This document shows, in pieces, positions 1,866 through 32,000 of a stretch of 32,000 bases of DNA (position 1 is its first letter; each line of letters begins with the position of its first letter). The position numbers were made by a program, and so were the translations under genes. Origin of the DNA: an archaeon (GTDB taxonomy: Archaea; Iainarchaeota; Iainarchaeia; Iainarchaeales; CSSED10-239). The DNA is taken from positions 60,001 to 92,000 of the forward strand of contig JBBABY010000001.1 in assembly GCA_041657425.1 (NCBI GenBank), given 5' to 3'. Under the pieces are notes generated by a model. That model was not told the origin of the DNA and did not search any database. It saw only the letters and a list, made by a program, of their open reading frames with translations.

Positions 1866-2450
1866 TTATAGGTGTGGGCTTTGAAAAGCTAATGCTCTCT
1901 TTATTTCTGCATTTTCTAATATAGAGTAAAGTTTATTATGATATTTAGGATCTTTGCCATTAAAAACTGCTAGACCAACACTTGCTAGATCTCCATGAGT
2001 TACTAGAAGTATTTTCTTTCCTTTGTATTTCTTTTCCAAATCTGCAATTAATTCTTTAAATCTACTAGCTATTGAATATACAGACTCTATGCCCTTATAG
2101 GGTTTCCCTGAAAAATCGCATTCCCAAACCTTTAAATAAAAGTTTGTATAATCCTTTTTTTCCAATTCTCCAAAATTTCTTTCTCTTAATTGTTTTGAAA
2201 GAATTATTGGCTTTGCTTTAATATAAGTTTTTACAATCTCTGCTGTTTCTTTTGCTCTTTTGAAATCAGAGGAATAGATTATTGTATCTTTATCTAAATC
2301 TTTATTCTTTGAAATAGACTCTCTTGCTTGTTGCTTTCCTTTTGCAGTTAAACCGTAATGAGGCACTCCCTTTTTTGGATCACTAACTATTATGTGTTTA
2401 AGATTACCAAGACTGTGTCCGTGTCTCATTAAATAATATGTATTGTTCAT
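1866..2450 (-). CDS. histidine phosphatase family protein (phosphoglycerate-mutase-like), tandem copy 1
   Basis: 194 aa. It has an N-terminal RHGHS catalytic motif and a distal THGD histidine. It is a paralog of the adjacent 2500-3084 ORF. Confidence 0.8.
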   Translation of the reverse strand: MNNTYYLMRHGHSLGNLKHIIVSDPKKGVPHYGLTAKGKQQARESISKNKDLDKDTIIYSSDFKRAKETAEIVKTYIKAKPIILSKQLRERNFGELEKKDYTNFYLKVWECDFSGKPYKGIESVYSIASRFKELIADLEKKYKGKKILLVTHGDLASVGLAVFNGKDPKYHNKLYSILENAEIKRALAFQSPHL

Positions 2451-2499
2451 TTTAATCTATTTCTTTCAAAAATAACTTATTTAATTTAAAATCTAAAAT

Positions 2500-3084
2500 C
2501 TAGTTTGCTTTTCTTAATTCTGCTGTTTTTAAAGAAAATAATGTGTGGTGAAACTTTGGGTCTTTCTTAATAAAGCAAGTTAGAAGAATATTCACTATAT
2601 CTCCGTGAGCTGCAAGAACTATCTTTTTGCCTTTGTATTTCTTTTCTAAATCTAAAATTAGTTTTGTAGCTCTGTCAGCTACTGAATAAACTGATTCAAT
2701 TTCTCCAAGTGGTTTATCCTTTATATCTAATTCCCAAACTTTATCATAATTTTTATCAGAAGTTCTATCATATTTACCAAAATATCTTTCTCTTAAAGCC
2801 TTTGTTAAAATTATAGGTTTTGCTTTAATATGCACTCTAACGATTTCTGCAGTTTCTCTTGCTCTTTTAAAGTCTGAAGAATAAATAATTGTGTTTTTAT
2901 CTAAATCTTTATTTGCTTTTATTGAATCTTTTGCTTGTTGCTTTCCAAGTTCTGATAATCCGTAATTTTTAACAGCATATTTTGGACTACTCATAATTAA
3001 TTTCTTTATGTTTGCTCTACTTTGGCCGTGTCGTATTACATAATAGGTATTATTTAATTTTTTTATATCTTTTATTTTGTTCAT
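2500..3084 (-). CDS. histidine phosphatase family protein (phosphoglycerate-mutase-like), tandem copy 2
   Basis: 194 aa with RHGQS and AHGD motifs. It shares long identical peptides with copy 1: NKDLDK.TIIYSSDFKRA.ETAEIV, IKAKPIIL and DLEKKYKGKKI. Confidence 0.8.
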   Translation of the reverse strand: MNKIKDIKKLNNTYYVIRHGQSRANIKKLIMSSPKYAVKNYGLSELGKQQAKDSIKANKDLDKNTIIYSSDFKRARETAEIVRVHIKAKPIILTKALRERYFGKYDRTSDKNYDKVWELDIKDKPLGEIESVYSVADRATKLILDLEKKYKGKKIVLAAHGDIVNILLTCFIKKDPKFHHTLFSLKTAELRKAN

Positions 3085-4836: not shown

Positions 4837-6006
4837 TTAAAAAAAATATTCTTTTGATTTTAAAATTGCGTCTTTTACTAATTGTTCCTTGTCTGGAATG
4901 TGATCTTCAATTGCTTTTACTTCTTCTATTCTTGCTCTTGTCTGTGGGTGTTCAGCCACCATAAAGGAACAACAGTCTGGATAAGGGATAATTGAAATAT
5001 CATAAGTGCCAATCTTTTTTGCAATTGTAATTATTTCTTCCTTGTTAAAACCAATTAATGGTGGAAAGACAGGAAGAGTTGTTGCCTCATAGATGCAACT
5101 TATATTTTCTAGAGTCTGAGAAGCAACTTGGCCAACAGAATCACCTGTAACTATTGCTTGTGCATTTTCTTTTATTGCAAGTTCTTGAATAATCCTTAAC
5201 ATAAATCTTCTGTAGATTATCATTCTATGGTCTGCAGGGACGAGCATCAATAATTTTGTTTGAATGTCTGAGAAAGGAATAACAATTAACTTAGTTCTTC
5301 CTTGAAATTTCCTCAAAGTATTACAAAGCTTGAAAATCTTCTCTTCTACTTCTTTTGTTACTAAGTTATTGCTTTGGATGTGGGCATAAATTACTTTACA
5401 GCCTCTTTTGTTTAGCATAAACCCAGAAACTGGACTGTCAATGCCACCAGAAAGAGAACACATGACGTTACCAGTTGAACCCACTGGAAGACCTGAAACT
5501 CCTTGAGTGGTGTCCTTACTAGAAAATATAAAAACTTCCTTTTCTGTAACCTCTATATTTATTTCAAAATCTGGATTTTTTAATTTTACTTTCTTTCTTA
5601 AATTTTCAAAAATTACTTCTCCAACTTGTCTGTCTAACTCTTGAGAAGTTAATGGAAATTTCTTAAAAGATCTTGTTGATGTGACTCTAAAGTTTTCAAA
5701 ATCTTTTTCGTGAAATTTTGAAAGATCGAAAGACAATACTTTTATGTTTTCTAAATTTTGATTAGTTGAAAAGCAAAAAGAAAAACTTGAAATTCCAGGA
5801 ATACTAGAAAGAATAACTTTTATTTCTTCCGTGTTAACACTAGTGTTTAATACACACACCACTCGCCCATATCTCTTAAATGTTTTAACAATATAATCTT
5901 TACAAGAATCATTAATATTCCTTACAAGTATGTCTTCAAAGAAAGATCTATTGTCTTTTTTTATTCCTATTTCGGAATAATGTATCATTATGTGTGTTGG
6001 TTTCAT
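4837..6006 (-). CDS. thiI: tRNA 4-thiouridine synthase ThiI (THUMP + PP-loop, no rhodanese domain)
   Basis: 389 aa. PP-loop SLSGGIDSPV and a conserved DCCS motif near the C-terminus, with an N-terminal ferredoxin-like/THUMP-length region. Confidence 0.85.
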   Translation of the reverse strand: MKPTHIMIHYSEIGIKKDNRSFFEDILVRNINDSCKDYIVKTFKRYGRVVCVLNTSVNTEEIKVILSSIPGISSFSFCFSTNQNLENIKVLSFDLSKFHEKDFENFRVTSTRSFKKFPLTSQELDRQVGEVIFENLRKKVKLKNPDFEINIEVTEKEVFIFSSKDTTQGVSGLPVGSTGNVMCSLSGGIDSPVSGFMLNKRGCKVIYAHIQSNNLVTKEVEEKIFKLCNTLRKFQGRTKLIVIPFSDIQTKLLMLVPADHRMIIYRRFMLRIIQELAIKENAQAIVTGDSVGQVASQTLENISCIYEATTLPVFPPLIGFNKEEIITIAKKIGTYDISIIPYPDCCSFMVAEHPQTRARIEEVKAIEDHIPDKEQLVKDAILKSKEYFF

Positions 6007-14396: not shown

Positions 14397-14972
14397 ATGA
14401 ACAAAGAAATAAACAAAGGAGCGGAAGCTAAAATCTTAGAGAGCTTTGCCTTTGGTAAAAAACTAATTATTAAGCAGAGAGTTTCAAAGGATTACAGAGA
14501 TCCTGTACTTGATAAAAGAATCATCAAGACAAGAAACAAGCAAGAAGCAACACTCTTGAAGAAAGCAAAGGTTAATGGAATTAATACTCCGGACGTTTTC
14601 TATGTGGGACTTGATAAAATCATTATGGAAAAACTAGAAAACACAAACAACCACAAGAAACAACTAGAAGCAATTGGAAAAGAAATTGCAAAACTCCACG
14701 AACTTGGAATCATCCATGGAGACTTAAATCTTATTAATATCATAACAACTAAAGACAAAAAGATATACTTCATTGACTTTGGCCTTGGTTATCTTTCAAA
14801 CAAGATAGAAGACAAGGCAACTGATCTTCTAGTCTTTAAAAAAACCCTGTTTGCAAGAAAAACAACAGAGGGATTTTGGAAAGGAATAGAAGCAGGATAC
14901 CAAAAGCAATCCAAAGATAAAGCAATAATTGAACAAATCAAAGAAATAGAGAAAAGAGCAAGATACCTTTAA
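14397..14972 (+). CDS. bud32: Bud32/PRPK-type Kae1-associated kinase (KEOPS subunit, RIO-like fold)
   Basis: GAEA glycine-loop equivalent near the N-terminus, catalytic HGDLNLINI and IDFGLG motifs, and small size. The ORF track starts at TTG 14385; I prefer ATG 14397 (MNKEINKGAEA), which avoids overlap with the upstream stop. Confidence 0.85.
   Translation: MNKEINKGAEAKILESFAFGKKLIIKQRVSKDYRDPVLDKRIIKTRNKQEATLLKKAKVNGINTPDVFYVGLDKIIMEKLENTNNHKKQLEAIGKEIAKLHELGIIHGDLNLINIITTKDKKIYFIDFGLGYLSNKIEDKATDLLVFKKTLFARKTTEGFWKGIEAGYQKQSKDKAIIEQIKEIEKRARYL
14939..14964 (+). repeat. 26-nt exact direct repeat, copy 1 (inside the bud32 3' coding end)
   Basis: caaagaaatagagaaaagagcaagat is identical to 15848-15873. 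Here it encodes ..KEIEKRAR.. of Bud32. Confidence 0.9.
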
Positions 14973-15009: not shown

Positions 15010-15858
15010 ATGGTCGTAAAAAAATCAATCCCCGTTGTTAAACCAAAAATAAATCGTACAATTAATCCTCTCTTCCAAAAGAAAGCACAAGGCACAGAAA
15101 CTCAAAAAACAAATATACAAATAAAAGAAGAATTAAAACTTCTTGAAAAGAAACAAATAGAATTTATTTTTAAAGAATCATTGAAAACCAAAAATCCAGT
15201 AAGAGAATTATTAACTAAAGGACTTGATATTAGACAATTAAAAATAAGAGGCATAGATCTAATTAAAGAATTAGTCAAAGCTGGACACACAAAATCTTTA
15301 GCAGAAACTGGATATTTCAAAGAATTATTGAATGGACAATATATTAAAGAATTAGCAGAAGCGGGATATATCAAAGAATTAGTAAAACTGAGATATGTTG
15401 GCCCTTTAGTTGCTGCAGGATATTTAAACAAATTAGTTGAGATGGGATATATTAAAGAATTAGTAAATTTAGGATATCTAAAAGACGTTGCATACAAAGG
15501 ATATATCAAAGAATTAGCAAATGCGGGATATATTAGAGAACTAGTAGAAGCAGGACATTTTTCAAAATTAGTTGCTAATGGATATATCAAGGAACTAGCA
15601 GATAACGGAAACATAAAAGAATTAGTAAATGCTAGATTTTACAGAAAATTAATAGAAATGGGATACACAAAAGAACTAGTACAGGCAGGATATTTTAAAA
15701 AACTTGCAAAAGACAAATATTTCAAACAATTAGTAGATGCAGGATATATCAAAGAATTAGTAGAAGCAGGATATGTTAAAGAACTACTTAAACTTGGACT
15801 TTCTCAAGCTCAAATAACCCTTTCTATGAGAAGAAAAAGTCCATCGACAAAGAAATAG
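15010..15858 (+). CDS. nonapeptide-repeat protein with FQKKAxGTETQKT N-terminal module
   Basis: 282 aa. Residues 91-261 are 19 in-register 9-residue units of consensus aGYIKELVe. The N-terminal ~90 aa is paralogous to the 19440-20168 ORF. Confidence 0.7.
   Translation: MVVKKSIPVVKPKINRTINPLFQKKAQGTETQKTNIQIKEELKLLEKKQIEFIFKESLKTKNPVRELLTKGLDIRQLKIRGIDLIKELVKAGHTKSLAETGYFKELLNGQYIKELAEAGYIKELVKLRYVGPLVAAGYLNKLVEMGYIKELVNLGYLKDVAYKGYIKELANAGYIRELVEAGHFSKLVANGYIKELADNGNIKELVNARFYRKLIEMGYTKELVQAGYFKKLAKDKYFKQLVDAGYIKELVEAGYVKELLKLGLSQAQITLSMRRKSPSTKK
15280..15792 (+). repeat. 27-nt periodic coding repeat (19 units)
   Basis: Units such as gcgggatatatcaaagaattagtaaaa, atgggatatattaaagaattagtaaat and gcaggatatatcaaagaattagtagaa recur in frame. 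This periodicity also creates the long antisense shadow ORF at 15102-15614. Confidence 0.85.
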
Positions 15859-15873
15859 AGAAAAGAGCAAGAT
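15848..15873 (+). repeat. 26-nt exact direct repeat, copy 2 (spans the stop codon of the repeat-protein gene)
   Basis: Identical to 14939-14964 but read in a different frame (..TKK-stop). Confidence 0.9.
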
Positions 15874-17028: not shown

Positions 17029-17682
17029 ATGAAATTTATTTTCTATTTTATTTTTTTTTATGTTCTTGGAATCATCTTAGCAGTTACTAGAAAATACGAC
17101 ATATTTACAATTTCTTTAATATTTGGAATGTCTGGTCTTTTCTTATATTTTGGAAAAATTATTTTATTTATTTATCTTCTTATTTACTTTTGCGTTGCTG
17201 AAGGACTATCTTTAATCTTAAAGAATAAAGGAGAAAATAGAAGTTACATTAATCTTCTGGGAAACTGCCTTGTTGGGACTGTTCTTGTAGTTTTTGGGCA
17301 AGTCTATGCGGCGGCATCCACCATCTGCGGAGCATTCTCAGACACTATGTCTTCAGAGATTGGAAGATTATCTAAAGTTAAACCAAAGTTAATTACCACT
17401 TTTAAAGAAGTAGAAAAAGGAACTAATGGAGGAATAACAATCTTAGGCCTTTTTGGAGCACTATGTGTTTCAGTAATCACATTTGTTTTCTTTTATTATA
17501 TTTTTAAAACTGATCTTAAGATATCTATAATCATCTCACTCTTTGGAATAATTGGAACTCTTGTAGATAGTGTTATTGGAGCAACACTTGAAAATAAAGG
17601 ATACACGGACAATAGTCAAACTAATTTTTTAACAACAACAATAATTGGAATAATCTCAGTAATTGTTTTTTCTTTAATTTAA
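17029..17682 (+). CDS. DUF92/TMEM19-family integral membrane protein (CTP-transferase/polyprenol-kinase-like clan)
   Basis: 217 aa, multi-pass. The motifs GAFSDTMSSEIG, GTNGGITILG and GTLVDSVIGATLE match the conserved DUF92 blocks as I remember them. Confidence 0.6.
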   Translation: MKFIFYFIFFYVLGIILAVTRKYDIFTISLIFGMSGLFLYFGKIILFIYLLIYFCVAEGLSLILKNKGENRSYINLLGNCLVGTVLVVFGQVYAAASTICGAFSDTMSSEIGRLSKVKPKLITTFKEVEKGTNGGITILGLFGALCVSVITFVFFYYIFKTDLKISIIISLFGIIGTLVDSVIGATLENKGYTDNSQTNFLTTTIIGIISVIVFSLI

Positions 17683-18941
17683 AGCTTCCATTTCCAAACA
17701 GGAACTATTTGAATTACTAAATCCTTTTCTTTAATTGTGTCTTCTTGATTTAAAGTTAATATCGTTCCTTTATTTAGTTTAAATTTAGACATTGCTAACT
17801 TTAGCCCATTTATCTCTCTAACTTTATTATCTGCACTTAAATCTAAACAAACTTGAAAGGCATATGTTATCTTCTCTTTTTCTTTTATAATAAAATCACA
17901 TTCTAAATTCTGATCTTTATAGTAATATATACTTTCAAAATGGTTTCTTAAATTTATGAAAACTAAATTTTCAAGCATTCTCCCTTCATCTTTTGAAAAA
18001 GATAAAGAATTTGCTTTTGCAAAACCATTATCTATTGCATATATCTTCTTCTGACTTATCAATTGCTTCTTTATAGAATAATCAAATCTATTTATACTAA
18101 ATAACAAGTAACTATCTTCGAAATAAGAAATATACGAAATTATAGTATTAATAGAACCTACTTCAAATAATTTCTTTAAATTGTTGTAAGAATATTCTTT
18201 TCCTATGTTTGAAAGTAAATATACTGCTAAATCCTTTATAGTCTTTGACTCCTTTAAATGATGTCTAACAATTATATCTCTATAAATTATATTGTTTAAT
18301 AATTCTTGTAATATTTCTTCATTTTTATATTTTAAAAATTCAGGAAAACCACCCGCAACTAAATATTCTTTAAAGGAAACCTCACCTGACTTTTGACTTG
18401 TAAATTTCAAAAACTCATTATACGAAAATGGAAACATTTCTTTTCTTAAATGTCTTCCAGTTAATCTTGTACCTAATTCTTTACTTAATAAAGATGCATT
18501 TGAACCAGTAATTATTACCTTCTTTTTATTATCTAATAATTGCCTTACAAATATCTCCCATTTTTTTACATTTTGTATTTCATCAAAAAAGAAAATATCT
18601 ATGTTGCCATATACTTCTATTAATGCCTCTTGTAATTTTGTAAAGTCAGCCACTGAAAAAGCATTTAATCTCGTATCCTCAAAATTAAAATAAGCCCAAG
18701 ATTTCTGATTGCTTCTTATTTGTTGCAAGAACACACTTTTACCACATCTTCTTATTCCAGATATCACGTAAGCAAAAGAATCGGTAAGTTCCACTTCTTT
18801 TAACTCACTACGAGGTATTCCTAAATCTATATTTTTTAGCGCGTTCTTTTGATCTAAGACAATATCTATTATTTCTTTCTTTAACATCATATATATCTTT
18901 GGATAAACTAGTATATAAAGGTTTTCATTACTAATGAACAA
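17679..18941 (-). CDS. AAA+ ATPase of the COG1373 type (AAA_14 + DUF4143 architecture)
   Basis: Walker A is GIRRCGKS and Walker B is IFFFDEIQ, with a C-terminal DUF4143-like region. The likely real start is MMLKKEI at 18890, about 25 nt downstream of a TATA-like element (ctttatatac on the minus strand, 18911-18920). That would make the transcript leaderless. Confidence 0.7.
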   Translation of the reverse strand: MFISNENLYILVYPKIYMMLKKEIIDIVLDQKNALKNIDLGIPRSELKEVELTDSFAYVISGIRRCGKSVFLQQIRSNQKSWAYFNFEDTRLNAFSVADFTKLQEALIEVYGNIDIFFFDEIQNVKKWEIFVRQLLDNKKKVIITGSNASLLSKELGTRLTGRHLRKEMFPFSYNEFLKFTSQKSGEVSFKEYLVAGGFPEFLKYKNEEILQELLNNIIYRDIIVRHHLKESKTIKDLAVYLLSNIGKEYSYNNLKKLFEVGSINTIISYISYFEDSYLLFSINRFDYSIKKQLISQKKIYAIDNGFAKANSLSFSKDEGRMLENLVFINLRNHFESIYYYKDQNLECDFIIKEKEKITYAFQVCLDLSADNKVREINGLKLAMSKFKLNKGTILTLNQEDTIKEKDLVIQIVPVWKWKL

Positions 18942-19432: not shown

Positions 19433-19448
19433 GAAAAATTTATTTCTT
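19424..19448. terminator. 9-bp inverted repeat joining two convergent stop codons (possible bidirectional terminator hairpin)
   Basis: aagaaataa (19424-19432, includes the stop of the 19013 ORF), a 7-nt loop, then ttatttctt (19440-19448, includes the stop of the minus-strand 242-aa ORF). T-rich runs follow on both strands. Confidence 0.3.
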
Positions 19449-20168
19449 CTTGATTTCAGACATTAGTCTATTAATCTGAATTTTAGATAACCCTATTTGT
19501 TGAAATCCTTTTAAACCATATTTTTCATAAAACGTCTGTGGGCCCCCACATTTATTAATAGTATAATCCATACCAAAATTCTCAGACACCTCTATCATTC
19601 CAACATCTCTAATTAAATTATGTATTCCATCAAAAGAAGCAATCACTTCTTCTCTTGTAATTTTCTTATGGCTTGCATAATATTCATGTCCTAATACAGC
19701 AGCTAGTGGGCAACCGTCTTCTGAAATAAAATCTTTCACTTCTTTTCTGTCCTTTAAAATCCATTCTCCGTGATAATAGGGTTCTACATCATCTTTTTCG
19801 ATACCAAGTCTACGGTCATTAAAATTATCAATACCAAATATCCTTTCTAATTCTTTTGTATCTAGCCCTTTTGACAATAATTCCTTTTTAGTTAACCCTT
19901 GCTCTTGTAATTCCCTTACAACTTGTTTAATTCTTTCTTTAAGTATTGGTATGGCTTTAGGATCATCTAATCTTGCTGATAATCTATCTATACCATATTT
20001 TATTTTCAAATGTATAATTGTTCTCATCACATCGGCTTTATCTAAAGATTGAATATTTTTTTTCATTTCTCTTTTAGTCTTTTGAGTTTCTGTGCCTTTG
20101 GCTTTCTTTTGAAAAATAGAGTTTCTTAATCTACCTTTTGGAGTAGTTATCATTGGCACAAAAATCAC
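19440..20168 (-). CDS. hypothetical protein, paralog of the repeat protein's N-terminal module with an unrelated Cys/His-containing C-terminal domain
   Basis: 242 aa. VPMITTPKGRLRNSIFQKKAKGTETQKT aligns with IPVVKPKINRTINPLFQKKAQGTETQKT of the 15010 ORF, which supports the GTG start at 20168 (alternative ATG at 20153). I do not recognise the C-terminal half. Confidence 0.6.
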   Translation of the reverse strand: MIFVPMITTPKGRLRNSIFQKKAKGTETQKTKREMKKNIQSLDKADVMRTIIHLKIKYGIDRLSARLDDPKAIPILKERIKQVVRELQEQGLTKKELLSKGLDTKELERIFGIDNFNDRRLGIEKDDVEPYYHGEWILKDRKEVKDFISEDGCPLAAVLGHEYYASHKKITREEVIASFDGIHNLIRDVGMIEVSENFGMDYTINKCGGPQTFYEKYGLKGFQQIGLSKIQINRLMSEIKKK

Positions 20169-20180
20169 TCTTCTTAAAAT

Positions 20181-20258
20181 TTATTTCTTCTTATCTTTCT
20201 TCTGCTTTACTTTATGCTGCTTTCCTGAGGCACTTACCCCTCTTCCTTGTGCTGACAT
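20181..20258 (-). CDS. micro-ORF 2, 25-aa lysine-rich peptide MSAQGRGVSASGKQHKVKQKKDKKK
   Basis: Hand-translated and too short for the ORF track. ATG at 20258 is preceded by AAGGAGG about 8 nt upstream. It shares SGKQH.(K/V)KQ.K..KK with micro-ORF 1. Confidence 0.5.
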   Translation of the reverse strand: MSAQGRGVSASGKQHKVKQKKDKKK

Positions 20259-20273
20259 ATTACTTTCCTCCTT

Positions 20274-20366
20274 TTATTTTTTCTTACTTTGCTTCTTTTG
20301 ATGTTGCTTTCCTGAAACGTTTAGAGTCTTATCTCCTCTACTTTGTAAATTAGATTGCTTTGCCAT
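20274..20366 (-). CDS. micro-ORF 1, 30-aa lysine-rich peptide MAKQSNLQSRGDKTLNVSGKQHQKKQSKKK
   Basis: Hand-translated. ATG at 20366 is preceded by AAGGAG about 9 nt upstream, with TATA-like elements (tatttataaa, tatttatag) further upstream in 20390-20440. It is a paralog of micro-ORF 2. Confidence 0.5.
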   Translation of the reverse strand: MAKQSNLQSRGDKTLNVSGKQHQKKQSKKK

Positions 20367-20450
20367 AATTTATTTCTCCTTTTAATTATTCTATAAATAT
20401 AACTAAGAAGATAGAATTTATAAATACTTTAGAAACAGAGAATTATTGCT

Positions 20451-25077: not shown

Positions 25078-26556
25078 ATGGATTCAAAGATTATTTGCTA
25101 TGCACAAGAAAAGGACCTCATTATTAATGAGGATTGCCTAAGGTTACTTAATATTAATAACTATAAGAAAATACTTGATAAACTTTCTTCTGATAATAAA
25201 ATCTTTGTGTGCACTGACGATATTAGAAAGATTGTCAGCTTAATGAACGAAACAAACGAAATTTCTATTTCTGAAAACGGGAAAAACTTTAAGATATTTG
25301 ACGCTTATGATGTTACTGGAAAAAAACTATCACAAGGATCTGTTGATGACTTCTTATCTTTATTTACTGATAAATATAATACCTTATCAGAAATAATCAA
25401 AAAAAGAGTAGACTTTAGCTTTCAAACAATTAACGATGCTAAAAAAGAAGTCAAGAATAAAGAAGTACATATTATCGGAATGGTACTTGATAAGAGAATT
25501 ACAAAGAACGGAAATCTGTTACTTACTGTTGATGACCCCACTGGAAAAGTTAATATCGTAGTCATGGATAAACCAGATAATGGAAATGAAACTAACGCAG
25601 TTAATCCTAAAGAAATACTAATGGACAATGTGCTTGGATTTAAATGCTCAGTCTTAGGCAAAGATATGCTTATTGCTAAAGAAATAGTATATCCTGATAT
25701 TCCGTACATCACTAAACCACAAACATTGAAAGACGACTGCTATGTTGTAATACTTGGAGACACACATGTTGGAAGTAAACTATTTAGAGAAGATGAATTT
25801 AATAATTTCATTGAATGGTTAAATGGATTTAATGCAAGCGACGAAGACAAGAAAATAATCTCTAAAATTAAATATATTATTATTGCTGGAGACTTGGTTG
25901 ATGGAATTGGTATATACCCTAAGCAATATGATGAACTGGCAATTACTAATATCTTTGAACAGTATAGAGTGTTTGAAGAATTTATTTTAAAGATTCCAGA
26001 GACTATGGAAATTTTCTTAATGCCAGGTAATCACGATGCGGTTAGAGTATCTGACCCACAACCAGCAATCCCTGAAAAGTTCATGCCTAATCTTTATACT
26101 AAAAAAAATATACATCACCTTGGGTCTCCAACTTGGATTGAACTTGAAGGACTATTATTTTTAATATATCACGGAATGGCGCTACACGGGATATTTGGAA
26201 AAATCAAAGATTTAAAAATGGACAAACCTGACTTAGCACAAAAAGAACTAATCAAAAGGAGAGACTTGATGCCACAGTTTGGAGAAAAACAAACATTCAT
26301 TCCAATCGAGAAAAACTTTTTAACGATTAAAGAACAACCAGATGTTTTTATTTGCGGACACATTCATCATCACGCATATTCTAAATATAAAAGCTGTCAC
26401 TTGATTAGCACATCCTGCTGGCAATCCATAACTTCATTTCAAATAGAAATGGGCCACGTACCAACAGTTTCTAAAGCAATACTATTTAATCTAAAAGATC
26501 AAAAAGTATGTATCAAAGACTTTGAAAAACAAGAAAATAAAACAGAACAGATATGA
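25078..26556 (+). CDS. polB: DNA polymerase II (PolD) small subunit DP1, Mre11-like phosphoesterase/exonuclease
   Basis: 492 aa. OB-fold-length middle region, then calcineurin-like motifs GDTHVGS, GDLVDG, GNHD, HG and GHIHH. An ATGA overlap joins it to the DP2 gene. Confidence 0.9.
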   Translation: MDSKIICYAQEKDLIINEDCLRLLNINNYKKILDKLSSDNKIFVCTDDIRKIVSLMNETNEISISENGKNFKIFDAYDVTGKKLSQGSVDDFLSLFTDKYNTLSEIIKKRVDFSFQTINDAKKEVKNKEVHIIGMVLDKRITKNGNLLLTVDDPTGKVNIVVMDKPDNGNETNAVNPKEILMDNVLGFKCSVLGKDMLIAKEIVYPDIPYITKPQTLKDDCYVVILGDTHVGSKLFREDEFNNFIEWLNGFNASDEDKKIISKIKYIIIAGDLVDGIGIYPKQYDELAITNIFEQYRVFEEFILKIPETMEIFLMPGNHDAVRVSDPQPAIPEKFMPNLYTKKNIHHLGSPTWIELEGLLFLIYHGMALHGIFGKIKDLKMDKPDLAQKELIKRRDLMPQFGEKQTFIPIEKNFLTIKEQPDVFICGHIHHHAYSKYKSCHLISTSCWQSITSFQIEMGHVPTVSKAILFNLKDQKVCIKDFEKQENKTEQI

Positions 26557-29500
26557 GTGAATTAAATCTATTAGCAAATAAGGAGATTAAAGAATATTAT
26601 AATAAACTTACAAGCGATATAGATGTAGCTGTTGAAATTGCAAGAACTGCAAGAAAGCAAGGAAAAGACTCACATAACGATATTGAATCTATTCCTGCAA
26701 AAGGAATTGCAGAAAAAACTGAACTACTTATTGGTCCGCCAGGTGTTGCAAAAGTATATAATGAACTTTGGGAAAAGCATCATACTCGATTTCCAGTAAT
26801 GCTTGAAATATTTAATATGATTCTTGATAAAGAACTTGGAAATATTGAAGACCCTGAAAAAAGATTAGATCAAGCACTTAGAACTGCATTAATTATTGAA
26901 ACAGAGGGCGTTGTTGTTTCTCCACTTGATGGACTACCATTAATCAAACTTACAAAGAATGAGGACGGAACAGAATTTATTGATATTTATTATGCGGGAC
27001 CAATTAGAGCGGCTGGAGGTAACGCACAAACCTTACCTTTACTCTTAGGAGACCTTGCAAGAAAAAAACTTGGTATCGATAGATTTAAACCAAGTAAAAG
27101 AGAAATAGAAAGAGTGATTGAAGAAGCAATGCTTTATCAATCAGAAGTTGTGGCAAGACAACAAAGAGTAACTGAAGCAGAAGTAAGAGTGATGGTGGAG
27201 AATTGTCCTATCAGAGTAAATAGTTATGCAGATAACGAAGTTGAGATTGTTGCTAATAGAGACATTCCAGGAATTGACACAAACAAAGTTAGAGGGGCAA
27301 TGTGCCTTGTTTTAATTGATGGACTTTATGTTAGAGCACTTAAGATTATGAAGACCAGTAAGAAGATTGGACTTGATTGGTCATGGCTTGAAAAACTTGT
27401 TAAGGTTAAAAAGACCGCAGAAGGATTTGAACTTAAACCCTCAAGTAAATACCTTGAAGGATTGGCTGCTGGTAGACCTGTTTTCTCATATCCTTTTAGA
27501 GAAGGAGGGTTTAGACTTAGGTATGGCAAAGCTAGAAACACGGGGCTTATGGCAAAAGCAATTAATCCTGCAACCATGTATGTACTAGACGAATTTATTG
27601 CTGTTGGAACACACGGAAGAATTGAAAGACCAGGAAAATCTTTACAATACTTTCCATGCTCAACCATTGACGGGCCAATTGTTAGACTTAAGAACAAAGA
27701 TGTGATTTCTCTTGATTATGTTAAAGACGCGAAAAAATACGTAAATGACATTGACAAAATATTATTTGTTGGAGACATGCTTATTGCTGTTGGAGACTTT
27801 AGAAAATCAGGACACCCTTTAATCAAATCAGGATATGTAGAAGAAGAATGGCTTGCAGAAACAAATTATCTTTACAGAACAGAAAAAATAAATAAACACG
27901 TTCTTGAGATGTGTAAAGGATTTTACCAAAACCCTAATCCTTATACAGCCATTGCCTTAAGCTTAAAATATAATATCCCTTTATTCCCTAAATATATCTT
28001 TTACTATGATCTTCTTAATCACGAAGAACTAAAAATATTAATTAGACACGTAAGAGCAGCAGATAAACTCTTCTCAAATGAAGACGAAAGTACTTCGCGC
28101 GAGTCAAGCGTTGCCGACTCAGAAGATAAAAAAGAAAAAACAACAATTTTAGAAAATATAAAAGAGATCTTTGAAAAAACAATAGACACTATTGATCTTA
28201 TTGGATTAACTGAAATACTTACAAAGAAAGAAACACAAATTATTGGTATCAAGATTGAATATGATACTGAGATCAAAGCCATACTTGAAAAGATAGGACT
28301 TGTGCATAAATACTTAGAAGAAGAAAATAAAATCTTGATTGAAAAAGAACAAGCATACCCTTTCCTAAAAACTGTTGGAGCAATGAATGCCATTGACCCT
28401 ATTGAAGAATTTAAAGACGAAATTGAAAACCAAGAAAAAACAACTGTAGAAATATTAAGTCATATTTCTAAAATTGAAATTAGAGACAAATCAGGATTTT
28501 GGATTGGGGCAAGAATGGGTAGGCCAGAAGCTGCTCATGAAAGAGTTGTGGCTGGAAAAGTTAATGTATTGTTTCCTATCGGTAAAGGATATGGTAACTC
28601 TAGAGATTTTATTAAAGCAATTAAGAAAAGAGCAGATGGTGCTAACCACAACGACTTTGGAATTAACGATGTTGAGATTAAATCATTTATGTGTCTTACC
28701 TGTAAAAAAATAATATTTAATAATTATTGTTTTGATTGTAAGACTGAAGCAAAAGAAATTAGAATCTGCTTAAAATGTAATTCACAAACTTCTGACAAGA
28801 TTTGTAGTAAATGTAACTTAGAAACAAAAGTTAAGATTGATCATAAGATTAATATTGATAGACTTATTGAACATGCCGCAAACAACCTAAGAGTAGGAAT
28901 GCCTGAAAGCCTGAATGGAGTAAAAGCACTTGTTAGTAGAGATAAAGTTTCTGAACCACTTGAAAAAGGAATCTTAAGAGCCAAGCATAATGTTTCTATC
29001 TTTAGAGACGGCACTTGTAGATATGAAGCATTAAACGCAACCATCTCACAAGTATCTGCTAAAGAACTTGGAATTACACTTGAAAAATTAAAAGAACTTG
29101 GATATAAAAAAGACTATCTTGATAATGATCTTAAAGACGAAAACCAAAGAGCATCAATCTTTCCTCAAGACATTATTGTTGATGACAACTGCGGAGAATA
29201 CTTCTTAAGAGTGTCACAATTTATTGATGATGAACTTGAGAAGTTTTATGAACTTCCAAAGTTTTATAACTCTAAAACAAAAGAAGACCTTATTGGCCAA
29301 CTTGTTATTGGTCTTGCCCCACACACGTCTGCTGGAATTGTTGGAAGAATTATTGGTTACTCTAAATCTAAACTTGCGTGGGGACACCCTTATTACATAA
29401 CTGCAAAAAGAAGAAACGTTGATGGAGACCAAGACTCAATGTTATTGTTAATGGACTCTATGCTTAATTTCTCTAACAGTTATTTAAGTTCAGGAAGAGG

Positions 29501-30167
29501 AGGAAGAATGGACGCGCCTATTGCTTTTACTACTGTTCTCTCGCCATTTGAGATAGATGATGAATCACATGATATTGAAACAAACACTGAATATCCATTT
29601 GAATTTTACCAAGCAAGTAAAACCTTTACTGAAGCAGATAAGGTTCCTGAAATTATTAATGCAGGAAAATTACTTGGAACAGACAAGCAATACGATTGTA
29701 TAAAATTTACACACGACACCAATTGTTTTGATGAAGGCCCTAAGCAAAGTTCTTATATTTCCATCAAGTCAATGCATGACAAAGTACAGAAACAAGCAAA
29801 ACTTCAAGAAAGAATCCTTGCAGTAGATAACAAAGATTCTTTAGAAAGACTTCTTCATTATCATTTATTCCCAGACATCATTGGTAACACCAGAGCGTTT
29901 GCAAGACAGAAACTAAGATGCGTTAAATGTAATAAAAAGTTTAGAAGAATTCCACTTTCTGGTGTTTGTGATTGCGGAGGAAAATTAATCTTGACAATCG
30001 CACAAGGATCCATAAAGAAATATTTGGAAGTTGCAAAAAACTTAGTAATTGATTATCAACTAAACCCACATCTTTTACAAAGACTAAACATAAGTGAAGA
30101 CGAAATCAACAGCCTCTTCTCAGACAAAGAAGCAAGAATGCAGAAGTCGTTGTCTGAATATTTTTAA
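26553..30167 (+). CDS. polC: DNA polymerase II (PolD) large subunit DP2
   Basis: 1204 aa. Conserved DP2 blocks (GPIRAAGGNAQT, GARMGRPE, APHTSAG, NVDGDQD), an internal Cys4 cluster (CLTC..CFDC..CLKC..CSKC) and C-terminal CVKC...CDCGG zinc sites. The size is intein-free. Confidence 0.95.
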   Translation: MSELNLLANKEIKEYYNKLTSDIDVAVEIARTARKQGKDSHNDIESIPAKGIAEKTELLIGPPGVAKVYNELWEKHHTRFPVMLEIFNMILDKELGNIEDPEKRLDQALRTALIIETEGVVVSPLDGLPLIKLTKNEDGTEFIDIYYAGPIRAAGGNAQTLPLLLGDLARKKLGIDRFKPSKREIERVIEEAMLYQSEVVARQQRVTEAEVRVMVENCPIRVNSYADNEVEIVANRDIPGIDTNKVRGAMCLVLIDGLYVRALKIMKTSKKIGLDWSWLEKLVKVKKTAEGFELKPSSKYLEGLAAGRPVFSYPFREGGFRLRYGKARNTGLMAKAINPATMYVLDEFIAVGTHGRIERPGKSLQYFPCSTIDGPIVRLKNKDVISLDYVKDAKKYVNDIDKILFVGDMLIAVGDFRKSGHPLIKSGYVEEEWLAETNYLYRTEKINKHVLEMCKGFYQNPNPYTAIALSLKYNIPLFPKYIFYYDLLNHEELKILIRHVRAADKLFSNEDESTSRESSVADSEDKKEKTTILENIKEIFEKTIDTIDLIGLTEILTKKETQIIGIKIEYDTEIKAILEKIGLVHKYLEEENKILIEKEQAYPFLKTVGAMNAIDPIEEFKDEIENQEKTTVEILSHISKIEIRDKSGFWIGARMGRPEAAHERVVAGKVNVLFPIGKGYGNSRDFIKAIKKRADGANHNDFGINDVEIKSFMCLTCKKIIFNNYCFDCKTEAKEIRICLKCNSQTSDKICSKCNLETKVKIDHKINIDRLIEHAANNLRVGMPESLNGVKALVSRDKVSEPLEKGILRAKHNVSIFRDGTCRYEALNATISQVSAKELGITLEKLKELGYKKDYLDNDLKDENQRASIFPQDIIVDDNCGEYFLRVSQFIDDELEKFYELPKFYNSKTKEDLIGQLVIGLAPHTSAGIVGRIIGYSKSKLAWGHPYYITAKRRNVDGDQDSMLLLMDSMLNFSNSYLSSGRGGRMDAPIAFTTVLSPFEIDDESHDIETNTEYPFEFYQASKTFTEADKVPEIINAGKLLGTDKQYDCIKFTHDTNCFDEGPKQSSYISIKSMHDKVQKQAKLQERILAVDNKDSLERLLHYHLFPDIIGNTRAFARQKLRCVKCNKKFRRIPLSGVCDCGGKLILTIAQGSIKKYLEVAKNLVIDYQLNPHLLQRLNISEDEINSLFSDKEARMQKSLSEYF

Positions 30168-30170
30168 AAA
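30122..30170 (+). repeat. 49-nt direct repeat, copy 1 (functional 3' end of the DP2 gene including its stop)
   Basis: agacaaagaagcaagaatgcagaagtcgttgtctgaatatttttaaaaa matches 31120-31168 with 4 mismatches. Confidence 0.9.
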
Positions 30171-30173
30171 AGG

Positions 30174-31034
30174 TTATTTATATTTTGGTTTTCTTTTTTT
30201 CTTACTTTTTAATATTAATCTTTTTTGCTTTTCAGGAATTGTTAAATAATTATCTTTATTTGAAATCTTTCTTCCAAGCCCTTTCTCCACTTCTTTTCTT
30301 GCATTGCCTACAATTGCACCGCCTTTCTTTGCAACCACTTTGGATTTTAAATAACCTTGTGCATCTTCTTTAACTGTAATTTCCTTAGTTACTTTTTCCC
30401 CTAACATTGAGAAAATCAATTCAAACTCGTCCATATGGTCTCTTAAATTTTCATTATTTAAACCTTTGAATTTCTTATATTCGTTAGGCGTCATATCAAA
30501 AGTAGCTTTTGAAATTTCAGCTGTAAGAATTGAAAACTCTTTTTTTTCCTTTACTCCTCTTTTCTTCCATTCGTCAGTTAGTTCATCCCTAACAGCTATC
30601 CCTCTAATTCTCTTTTCAATCCATTCATCGGAGTAACCTTTAGCTATAAAAAGAGCCTTCATTCTTTTTTGAGCAAGCTCTGGATTTTGTATCTCTTGTA
30701 TTCTTTCATAACCCACTTGAGAAAGCCACAGTTTGAAAGGTTCTGCTTTTGGGGAGGGAATTGATTGAATTAATCTAAATGCGCCTTTAATAGATATACA
30801 ATTTAAATTTTGTTTACCACCAACTGTATCTATCAAAAGGGGGGTGGCAATTTGCCCCCACCCTTTATTAAAAGATTCGTCTCTTCTTCTCATATCTTTT
30901 AAATATCCTGATGGATCTTTAGAATCAGTTAATACCTCAACTATATCGGTCGCAACAACCCACCATTCTTCATTAAACCAAGTTCTTCTAATTTTCTTGT
31001 TTTCAAAAATAACTATTGAATTATTTGTTTCCAT
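30174..31034 (-). CDS. Bro-N domain protein (phage/virus-associated antirepressor-like family)
   Basis: 286 aa. The N-terminal Bro-N pattern is IFENKKIRRTW..EEWWVVATDIVEVL. The highly characteristic downstream blocks are IQSIPSPKAEPFKLWLSQVGYERI, RDELTDEWKKRG and ENLRDHM. Confidence 0.8.
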   Translation of the reverse strand: METNNSIVIFENKKIRRTWFNEEWWVVATDIVEVLTDSKDPSGYLKDMRRRDESFNKGWGQIATPLLIDTVGGKQNLNCISIKGAFRLIQSIPSPKAEPFKLWLSQVGYERIQEIQNPELAQKRMKALFIAKGYSDEWIEKRIRGIAVRDELTDEWKKRGVKEKKEFSILTAEISKATFDMTPNEYKKFKGLNNENLRDHMDEFELIFSMLGEKVTKEITVKEDAQGYLKSKVVAKKGGAIVGNARKEVEKGLGRKISNKDNYLTIPEKQKRLILKSKKKRKPKYK

Positions 31035-31119
31035 AAACTTTTCACCAATTATATATACTTTATAATTGGCAATATAAAAAGCTTTCTAGGGTGGCTGTCC
31101 AGTGCGAAATAGTATTTTT

Positions 31120-31168
31120 AGACAAAGAAGCAAGAATGCAGAAATCGTTATCTGAATTTTTCTAAAAA
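31120..31168 (+). repeat. 49-nt direct repeat, copy 2 (orphan copy of the DP2 3' end)
   Basis: agacaaagaagcaagaatgcagaaatcgttatctgaatttttctaaaaa would encode DKEARMQKSLSEFF-stop, against DKEARMQKSLSEYF-stop in the real gene. Confidence 0.9.
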
Positions 31169-31184
31169 TTAGTTATATTTCAGA

Positions 31185-31310
31185 TTATTTTTTAGCATAC
31201 TTGAATGGCGCAGCTTTAAGAGACGAGATTGATTGAATAATTCAAAATGTGCCTTTTATATTTGCACAATCTGTTTCATAATATTTGCCATCATAAGATA
31301 TTAGTTTCAG
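31185..31310 (-). pseudogene. decayed fragment of a second Bro-N gene
   Basis: The reverse-strand translation LISYDGKYYETDCANIKGTF*IIQSISSLKAAPFKYAKK* aligns with LIDTVGGKQNLNCISIKGAFRLIQSIPSPKAEPFKLW of the intact gene (about half identical). It has an in-frame stop at 31242-31244, and both the N- and C-terminal parts are missing. Confidence 0.7.
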
Positions 31311-31384
31311 TTGGTAACAAAATGTCACCGACTTATTGTGATTTATATCTAATAAATCTATAACACAATTTACATTAATCCTAA

Positions 31385-32000
31385 TCAAGCATCGCGGATA
31401 CAAAAAAATGGCAAAGCGACGTTTTTTGCGTGAGGCTCATGATCGTGATTAGCAGTATCAAATGCATATGCGTAATTGTGGTTTTCAACTTTACTTGTAC
31501 TGGACCAATATGGGCCACCAGGATAAATCGTAGAATTGTATATTGTATAAATGTCTGGATTTGTAATAGCGGCTATTTGATTTTTTGCGGGAAGATACCA
31601 ATCACTCCAACCATGATAATTTAAATCTGCACAAATGCTTGCTGCAATTGGTCTATCATTACAATTATTAACAATCATATTTGTATTATTAGAACCATTA
31701 TCATCTGATATTGCCCCAATATATATATACCCTTGACAACCCCAGCTTTTTAAAGATCGATTAGAAATATAGAACGCAATATTTGACTGACCGTTTAGTT
31801 TTGCATACGAAATATCATCATTTACAAAATATAAATTAGAGACAATATTACTTGGTAACATGCCGTCTTTATAAGCTCGTGCCTTTATTGTTTGTTGTAC
31901 CGTCAGTGTTATTGGATCTGTATATTGAGAACTACTTGGTGTTGGATAAAGACCGTTTTTTGTATAATAAATTGTTGCTCCAGGAGTTTCACAATTTAGA
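31385..32000 (-). CDS. surface protein with Fn3-associated (chitobiase/hexosaminidase C-terminal-like) repeat and C-terminal DUF1566 (Lcl-like) domain; N-terminus beyond window
   Basis: The frame stays open upstream of the track's Met (31861) to the window edge: NCETPGATIYYTKNGLYPTPSSSQYTDPITLTVQQTIKARAYKDGMLPS, an Fn3_assoc-type pattern. The C-terminal half has DUF1566 hallmarks: GWSDWYLPAKNQI, YWSSTS and a terminal FFCIRDA. Confidence 0.65.
   Translation of the reverse strand, partial: LNCETPGATIYYTKNGLYPTPSSSQYTDPITLTVQQTIKARAYKDGMLPSNIVSNLYFVNDDISYAKLNGQSNIAFYISNRSLKSWGCQGYIYIGAISDDNGSNNTNMIVNNCNDRPIAASICADLNYHGWSDWYLPAKNQIAAITNPDIYTIYNSTIYPGGPYWSSTSKVENHNYAYAFDTANHDHEPHAKNVALPFFCIRDA

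Follow-up and report, generated by a model that had tools for sequence, protein, structure and literature searches.

This work concerns a duplicated gene end in a 32,000-nt stretch of archaeal DNA (contig JBBABY010000001.1, positions 60,001 to 92,000), hereafter the window, which is a chromosomal stretch of 30% GC from an uncultured, DPANN-like archaeon. The duplicated end is that of DP2, the gene for the large subunit of the PolD polymerase. It is followed by an intact Bro-N/DinD-like gene in reverse orientation, by an orphan copy of the DP2 3' end and by the remains of a second Bro-N gene. We read this structure, with moderate confidence, as a recombination scar ('3'-end displacement') and not as an integrated mobile element. 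The features of the locus are listed below, with R and R' denoting the functional and the orphan copy of the DP2 end.

26553-30167, plus strand: DP2 (polD large subunit), the gene with the duplicated 3' end (Pfam PolC_DP2_N, PolC_DP2_central and PolC_DP2_cat, E-values down to 2.5e-117)
30117-30170, plus strand: repeat copy R, the functional DP2 3' end (..DKEARMQKSLSEYF-stop), with the exact 24-nt core at 30122-30145
30174-31034, minus strand: intact Bro-N/DinD-like gene (286 aa) that converges on DP2, the two stop codons being 6 nt apart
30836-30866: 31-nt near-palindrome over codons K57-L66 of Bro-N (AAAGGGTGGGGGCAAATTGCCACCCCCCTTT on the sense strand)
31035-31114, minus strand: native Bro-N upstream region with a TATA-like box, a 9-bp palindrome and a CACTGGACA box (plus-strand TGTCCAGTG, 31096-31104)
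31115-31168, plus strand: repeat copy R', the orphan DP2 3' end (..DKEARMQKSLSEFF-stop), without a polymerase body
31169-31202, minus strand: remnant of the spacer and of the last codons of an older Bro-N, part of the 91-nt gapped repeat
31200-31329, minus strand: decayed Bro-N pseudogene covering residues ~58-104, with an in-frame stop and without residues ~105-275

Duplicated end of the DP2 gene

The first-pass annotation of the window had reported that the end of DP2 recurs with 45/49 identity (..SLSEYF-stop versus ..SLSEFF-stop), and this was confirmed by a repeat finder and by alignment. The repeat finder places the copies at 30117-30170 and 31115-31168 (54 nt, 89% identity, spacing 998), with an exact 24-nt core, AGACAAAGAAGCAAGAATGCAGAA, at 30122-30145 and 31120-31143. 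When up to 3 mismatches are allowed, the core occurs exactly twice in the window, and it does not occur in any of 100 shuffles. The duplicated part comprises the last 46 coding nt of DP2 and its stop, i.e. the last 15 codons. Four of these 49 nt differ between R and R'. The changes are indeed mostly synonymous, as had been claimed (three synonymous, one conservative Tyr/Phe change), and the stop codon is intact in both copies. A gapped self-alignment lengthens the repeat to 91 nt at 80% identity (30117-30207 versus 31115-31202) and takes in the DP2 end, the 6-nt spacer and the last ~11 codons of Bro-N. Because the similarity continues through the spacer into the 3' end of Bro-N, the unit [DP2 end + Bro-N] is tandem, present once intact and once degraded, in agreement with the annotation.

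Direct repeats that include the 3' end of a target gene are a trait of the attL/attR type, and they are present here. The annotation had accordingly seen the footprint of repeated site-specific integration. Under this explanation, a mini-element of ~1 kb with an attP that mimics the DP2 3' end would have inserted twice in tandem, its tyrosine or serine recombinase being encoded elsewhere; in a variant, a larger integrated virus or plasmid would have left the locus as its last trace. The exact 24-nt core within repeats that hold a gene 3' end fits this idea, and the tandem layout is typical of repeated integration. Against it, no integrase or transposase domain was detected in the window by Pfam scans of all ORFs of at least 90 aa, as the annotation had noted for integrases, nor is either listed in the gene tables of the rest of the wider contig that was also screened (k141_1570433, 39.4 kb, ENA ERZ27247350, a short-read metagenome assembly). 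A third att copy is likewise missing, as a window search at up to 3 mismatches found no further repeat core to the right of the pseudogene. The 24-mer core was not found in viral contigs either. We consider both forms of this explanation unlikely, also in view of the wider family described below.

Inverted repeats that bracket the [DP2 end + Bro-N] unit were not detected by the repeat finder. The traits of an integron cassette are absent too, with no integrase and no attC-type structured or Rfam match. An attC-like hairpin in the repeat was considered and rejected by eye, the 8-bp stem of R being kept neither in R' nor in L002, the closest relative (see below).

Decayed second Bro-N copy

To the right of the orphan end, the annotation had placed a truncated, stop-containing second Bro-N gene, and this holds. 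In a tblastn search, 31200-31304 on the minus strand matches Bro-N residues 67-101 with 51% identity over 35 aa, including an in-frame stop (pairwise E 3e-7). A family HMM built from 34 members and run against the six-frame translated window returned the fragment at E 2e-6 as the sole match outside the intact gene (next E~1), whereas the generic Pfam Bro-N model misses it. At the DNA level, the pseudogene region (repeat D3) is 73% identical to the intact gene over 70 nt, and ~650 nt of the second Bro-N are missing. The pseudogene contains a decayed palindrome, GGTGACATTTTGTTACC (31313-31329), of the type GAC..GTC, as opposed to GGC..GCC in the intact gene. A remnant of the partner gene has thus been kept downstream of the orphan end.

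A 998-bp in-situ tandem duplication of [DP2 end + Bro-N] whose downstream copy later decayed would produce such a head-to-tail tandem with the same geometry in both units and with similarity that crosses the spacer into the Bro-N 3' end. However, the two parts of the downstream unit have diverged to different degrees. The Bro-N copies differ by ~27-35% (~70-73% identity in the comparable parts), with a stop and a large deletion in the remnant, whereas the DP2 ends are 92% identical (45/49). Parts that have been non-functional since one event should decay alike, and we therefore give in-situ duplication very little probability. The synonymous or conservative nature of the DP2 differences and the different palindrome types (GGC..GCC versus GAC..GTC) are further points against it.

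Comparison with related polD loci

The polD loci of three relatives were compared, namely L002 (genome contigs) and L084 and L085 (two short contigs, by protein search). L002 is the closest relative with 84% aa identity in DP2, and a 24-25-nt block of the DP2 end is identical in L002 too. R and L002 end alike in GAA TAT TTT TAA (..EYF). R' ends in GAA TTT TTC TAA (..EFF), which is the state of the more distant L084 (GAG TTT TTC TAA). That R' holds the outgroup state (EFF, TTC) while R and L002 share EYF/TTT also argues against in-situ duplication. Given the three synonymous changes and one conservative change, the retained stop and the outgroup codon states, R' looks like a genuine alternative allele that was under coding selection until recently, and not like a decay product. 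The two units may have been supplied by two lineages about as diverged as the window and L002.

The annotation had pointed to related polD loci as a place for empty sites, and none was found in clean form. L002, L084 and L085 have no Bro-N after DP2, but each has a different downstream neighbor. For this reason there is no clean empty site, and the region downstream of DP2 is a synteny break point.

In L002, the ORF directly downstream of DP2 (5536-5795) starts with a P-loop-like motif as judged by eye, and its family is possibly that of an AAA_14/DUF4143 ATPase gene found in the window at 17679-18941 (minus strand). If the L002 ORF belongs there, this type of ATPase may be another gene that relocates between relatives.

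Flanking repeats across the Bro-N family

A sample of 80 metagenomic loci encoding close homologues of the Bro-N protein was screened, 75 of which were scored with 350-nt flanks and 72 with 1.2-kb flanks. In the 350-nt flanks, direct repeats above every one of 300 permuted pairs were present at 10 of the 75 loci; among 206 other genes in the same DNA such repeats were found at three only, in other loci. With the 1.2-kb flanks (blastn), 16/72 loci were positive versus 4/300 permuted pairs and 5/83 pseudo-inserts (Fisher P 0.004).

The repeat sequence differs at every locus and is always locally derived. At L075/76 (106 nt), L034 (98 nt) and L069/73 (53 nt) it stems from the 3' end of an upstream gene. 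At L082 (119 nt) the source is the 5' end of an hsdR-like gene, at L037 and L043 it is a 5'UTR or promoter segment, at L046/49 the stretch that follows a tRNA, and at L014, L038 and L059 an intergenic hairpin repeat. The distance between repeat and Bro-N varies from a few nt to several hundred nt, hence there are no fixed element ends. An att core or target shared across the family copies was not encountered among the loci examined, and DP2 lies near Bro-N at none of the 80 metagenomic loci (21 viral loci fall outside this screen). The 150 neighboring proteins of homologous loci include only three integrases and two resolvases. An association with IS200-like Y1 transposases was rejected, such a gene being present at a single locus (L082). 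The claim of site-specific integration is not supported by these results, as there is no recombinase in the window or the contig, no DP2 at the 80 loci and no common repeat, only locus-specific ones at variable distances.

Seven coding repeat segments together hold 31 synonymous and 18 non-synonymous differences (pN/pS 0.14), with P values of 2e-11 (versus neutrality) and 2e-6 (versus a model in which one branch is neutral). By this codon pattern, the duplicated ends at Bro-N loci would as a rule be alleles from different lineages. Strains L069 and L073 are 100% identical over 4.8 kb save for a tract of ~500 nt (L069 3380-3880; 50-83% identity), which replaces the 3' end of an LRR-like host gene adjoining Bro-N. 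This is direct evidence that gene ends beside Bro-N get swapped by recombination.

Recurrence in the family also bears on a chimeric join of strain variants during metagenome assembly, which the short-read origin of the contig might suggest. Analogous structures occur in independent datasets (L069/L073, L075/L076, L046/L049), and the same proteins are encoded on two contigs, one of which is 170 kb long in an NCBI metagenome-assembled genome (locus tags WCX82_...). Moreover, the assembly k-mer suggested by the contig name (k141) far exceeds the exact 24-nt core, and four positions differ between the copies. An assembly artefact has next to no probability in our view.

In a bacterial subfamily, Bro-N starts 76-78 nt downstream of the tRNA CCA end at 11 loci (including L020, L026, L032, L041, L042, L045, L048, L052, L055 and L066) and 67 nt downstream in L065. 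The tRNAs are Ser-GGA, Ser-GCU, Ser-UGA, Ser-CGA and Asp-GUC, and a conserved leader (TTGTTGACGCTCAGG...) stands before the genes. In L031 and L046, this leader directly follows an orphan tRNA 3' end of 16-18 nt, with the intact tRNA further upstream. This position ~78 nt behind tRNA-Ser genes with four anticodons and tRNA-Asp, together with the orphan tRNA ends, speaks for an integrative element. On the other hand, a copy of the tRNA end downstream of the gene was found neither in the 11 loci nor in L065.

Integrative elements at the 3' ends of tRNA or protein genes resemble the polD locus in their repeats with a gene 3' end and in their tandem units, and in both the functional copy of the gene end may come from the incoming DNA. 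They differ from it in that here there is no integrase, there are no defined ends and there is no family-wide att core, and the unit is a single ~1-kb gene with its native cellular promoter. A search of the literature on Bro-N with direct repeats, on palindromes or on DinD in archaea returned nothing relevant.

The Bro-N protein and its relatives

The reverse-oriented Bro-N gene between the two DP2 ends was recovered as annotated. The product of ORF 30174-31034 matches Pfam Bro-N (PF02498) at 6.9e-13 over residues 14-106 (49.5 bits, gathering cut-off 25.6) and phrog_15286 over its full length (4.7e-79). Its family is very large and strongly conserved, with >8000 homologues at E <1e-20, the top matches being ~70% identical, in Woesearchaeota, Nanoarchaeota, Aenigmarchaeota, Thermoplasmata and some bacteria. 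These homologues are labelled 'DNA-damage-inducible protein D' (many in JGI) or antirepressor by some sources. No NCBIfam model and no sequence in the PDB matched the protein.

An AlphaFold (AF2) model of the protein (pLDDT 82) was matched by Foldseek to full-length DdrC of Deinococcus radiodurans (E 4.5e-7, probability 1.0, ~250 aligned columns), with TM-scores of 0.36-0.46 and ~12% sequence identity as the limits of this match. A nuclease or recombinase fold was not among the Foldseek matches. Based on the predicted fold, the product would be a DdrC-like DNA-binding protein and not a recombinase. DdrC belongs to the nucleoid, is induced by DNA damage and can compact DNA, circularise linear DNA and anneal strands (PMC9303277), and its gene is described as Deinococcus-specific (PMC9303277). 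The structural match suggests that the DdrC-like family is much wider than Deinococcus. The likeness to DdrC lies in the fit of the predicted fold to the full-length protein, and that to E. coli DinD in the name given by annotation sources; the window protein differs in its ~12% identity to DdrC, its TM-scores of only 0.36-0.46 and the lack of a PDB sequence or NCBIfam match.

The annotation had regarded Bro-N as a family of viruses and mobile elements, which is true in part. Homologues with 39-55% identity are carried by 21 contigs in IMG/VR, and the catalogued phages of INPHARED contain four unannotated fragments only (~41% identity). The usual place of the gene on viral contigs (40-56 kb long) is 1.4-7 kb away from one end, a position that would favor an integrative origin. 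The two nearest homologues (L107 and L111, 75% and 72% identical to the window protein), however, sit in a conserved slot in two archaeal lineages, with the gene order enolase - rpL1 - rpL10 - rpL12 - Bro-N - Hef helicase - XPF/ERCC4 nuclease (L107 2357-6336; L111 3622-8143). No flanking repeats were found at this slot. Between the two lineages, Bro-N is 77% identical, compared with 80-81% for the ribosomal proteins and 68% for Hef. Because its closest relatives occupy the Hef/XPF slot and diverge like their ribosomal neighbors, the subfamily is not simply viral. These nearest homologues appear to be vertically inherited and core-like, linked in these archaea to replication and repair and unlike typical viral cargo, which counts against an integrative element at the polD locus. 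As a separate observation, L107 has a possible collapsed remnant of a restriction-modification-type gene just after Bro-N, seen by eye.

The CACTGGACA box of the window gene recurs ~10-20 nt upstream of the TATA box in many archaeal-type homologues, including the syntenic L107 and L111 as well as L003, L005, L009, L016, L029, L047, L058, L072, L077 and others. It is probably a shared regulatory site.

Palindrome within the Bro-N coding sequence

At synonymous sites, no other stretch of the gene is as conserved as the 31-nt near-palindrome, which has the lowest third-codon-position entropy (0.64 versus 1.43 bits). The same codons show the palindrome in L003-L106, and viral homologues (39-55% identity) carry it at the same position with different stems. 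Across 52 distinct sequences, compensatory changes keep 80.7% of the cells paired, compared with 75.5 ± 0.7% after shuffling, and 0/500 shuffles reached as high a value. These changes (GGC..GCC, GAC..GTC, TAC..GTA, TTC..GAA) alter amino acids too. An RNA-level role was considered and rejected: G-U pairs on the sense strand are no commoner than A-C pairs (22 versus 27 cells), so the wobble pairs show no strand bias. No Rfam family matches the palindrome. Its role may lie at the DNA level, for instance as an operator or a cruciform.

The covarying intragenic palindrome and the over-representation of the gene in anchor duplications lead to a further idea, namely that the Bro-N/DdrC-like gene is a self-promoting single-gene cassette that is mobile without a recombinase of known type. 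The position of the gene behind conserved anchors (tRNA 3' ends in bacteria, protein-gene ends in archaea) underlies this idea as well, which we regard as a long shot. If the product acts like DdrC, the protein and the palindrome could directly promote the capture of their own gene beside short homologies. These traits make the family an experimental target for work on single-gene movement without a dedicated recombinase.

Companion repeat-flanked inserts

The annotation had seen the same flanking logic at two other sites of the window. The first of these is solid and the second is near chance.

14939-14964 and 15848-15873, plus strand: second insert, 26-nt exact repeat from the 3' end of a Bud32/RIO-type kinase gene, flanking ORF 15010-15858
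19435-19451 and 20176-20192, minus strand: third, weak case, 17-nt exact repeat around ORFan 19440-20168

The 26-nt repeat at 14939/15848 is longer than any in 200 Markov simulations. The ORF between its copies contains ~15 tandem repeats of 27 nt (9 aa, GYIKELVxA-like) at 15271-15816. The third case is weak since its repeat at 19435/20176 is only 17 nt long, with a window-wide chance P of ~0.075. This repeat corresponds to KKK-stop and 5 nt of a small basic ORF, and a homologue search with the ORFan returned only itself. ORF 15010-15858 and ORFan 19440-20168, which lie on opposite strands, share the N-terminus FQKKAxGTETQKT (62 nt at 81% identity), and each ends within its second repeat copy. 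These inserts seem to fit in-situ target duplication or a template switch better than allelic displacement.

An insertion with a long target-site duplication, whether by a staggered break with fill-in, by a template switch during replication or by an unknown cassette mechanism, was also weighed for the polD locus. It would extend to the repeats of 26 and 17 nt that flank the two ORFan genes, and it agrees with the identical repeats at 14939/15848 (26/26) and L069 (50/50), with the paralogous N-termini of the ORFan cargos and with the stop of each ORF inside the second repeat copy. The copies at the polD locus, however, are not identical and diverge like alleles, and de novo insertion does not predict a decayed homologue beyond the orphan copy. 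The window contains no transposase and the unit has no terminal inverted repeats, and to our knowledge repeat lengths of 17-119 nt fit no known transposase. We assign this explanation a small probability for the polD locus.

A proposed recombination scar at the polD locus

The favored 3'-end displacement would start from two diverged lineages that each carried a Bro-N/DinD-like gene convergent with polD-large. The incoming DNA would have consisted of its own DP2 3' end and an intact Bro-N with its native promoter, and the Bro-N copy of the recipient genome would already have been a pseudogene at entry. Recombination would have taken place through the highly conserved DP2 3' end, with the identical 24-nt block as the likely crossover region. 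Two routes can be envisaged: (a) circularisation of an [R + Bro-N] fragment and its entry by one Campbell-type crossover, or (b) a homologous join at the DP2 side combined with an illegitimate join upstream of the resident end, by which the anchor is duplicated (homology-facilitated illegitimate recombination, HFIR). Either route would yield the order DP2 body, R, new Bro-N, displaced resident end R' and old Bro-N pseudogene. The repeat, the tandem unit, the allele-like divergence, the lack of a recombinase and the recurrence of locally derived repeats in the family are direct observations. We infer which of the two units was the incoming one and that host recombination carried out the joining.

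Displacement also explains the unconstrained repeat length (17-119 nt), does not need a recombinase and accounts for the decayed homologue beyond the orphan end. Repeats are expected at a minority of loci only, because a join downstream of the anchor leaves none. From the integration proposed in the annotation, one component is retained: incoming DNA brought a replacement gene end, an idea that holds because both ends behave like alleles from two lineages. The discrete mini-element with att sites and an integrase is not.

[quoted passage not shown] In these arrays too, a conserved segment serves as the homology anchor, a gene end arrives together with a downstream gene, the resident end and its partner are pushed downstream and decay, and the copies are alleles from different strains (PMC5361080). 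The polD locus differs in that the anchor is the last 15 codons of an essential polymerase and not part of a polymorphic toxin, that the displaced end shows no evident functional diversification (one conservative residue change), that the cargo is a DNA-binding gene and not a toxin/immunity pair, and that the host is a DPANN-like archaeon. Displacement scars themselves are already known; one at an archaeal polD locus would be new.

Several points weigh against displacement. Neither a donor genome nor a clean empty site was found in the databases, where the lineage is rare, and a sliding identity profile of the window DP1/DP2 genes versus L002 gave no clear signal of a recombination tract. Applied to the window pair by itself, the codon test has four differences to work with (P ~0.02). 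The ancestral adjacency of DP2 and Bro-N is deduced only from the two tandem units and is absent in all three relatives. An integrative element with its own copy of the gene end under selection would predict allele-like divergence just as well, as an element-borne end would also diverge in coding fashion. The two companion inserts of the window, with identical repeats and paralogous ORFan cargo, fit in-situ target duplication better. Finally, the fixed spacing behind at least five different tRNA genes and the orphan tRNA ends look site-directed, although the same pattern would arise if tRNA 3' halves that resemble each other underwent homologous recombination.

If the locus is such a displacement scar, the exchange of a neighboring gene with diverged relatives can use the 3' end of a gene for an essential replicative polymerase as its recombination anchor. 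The scar would be datable and would offer a rare direct view of gene flow in uncultured DPANN-like archaea.

Further genes in the window

25078-26556: DP1 (polD small subunit), directly upstream of DP2
31385-32000, minus strand: 3' part of a large surface-type gene (Lcl_C, Fn3_assoc; Pfam Lcl_C 4.1e-9), abutting the Bro-N pseudogene

The contig gene table gives a product of 694 aa for the surface-type gene beyond the pseudogene. Core genes identified in the window by Pfam encode Orc1/Cdc6, MnmA, ThiI, SepF, Dus, a class I aminoacyl-tRNA synthetase, the Bud32/RIO-type kinase, ribosomal proteins S15 and S3Ae, SecD/F, a Nog1-type GTPase and both PolD subunits. A tRNA scan detected no tRNA genes in the window, the wider contig has none either, and Rfam returned nothing relevant for it at either the gathering or the E-value threshold. 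Two histidine-phosphatase genes at 1866-3084 (minus strand) are tandem paralogues with 70% nucleotide identity over 300 nt. A second tandem pair, at 20193-20372 (minus strand), consists of paralogous mini-ORFs for lysine-rich peptides of 25-30 aa, MSAQGRGVSASGKQHKVKQKKDKKK and MAKQSNLQSRGDKTLNVSGKQHQKKQSKKK, of which the source contig annotation calls one gene only.

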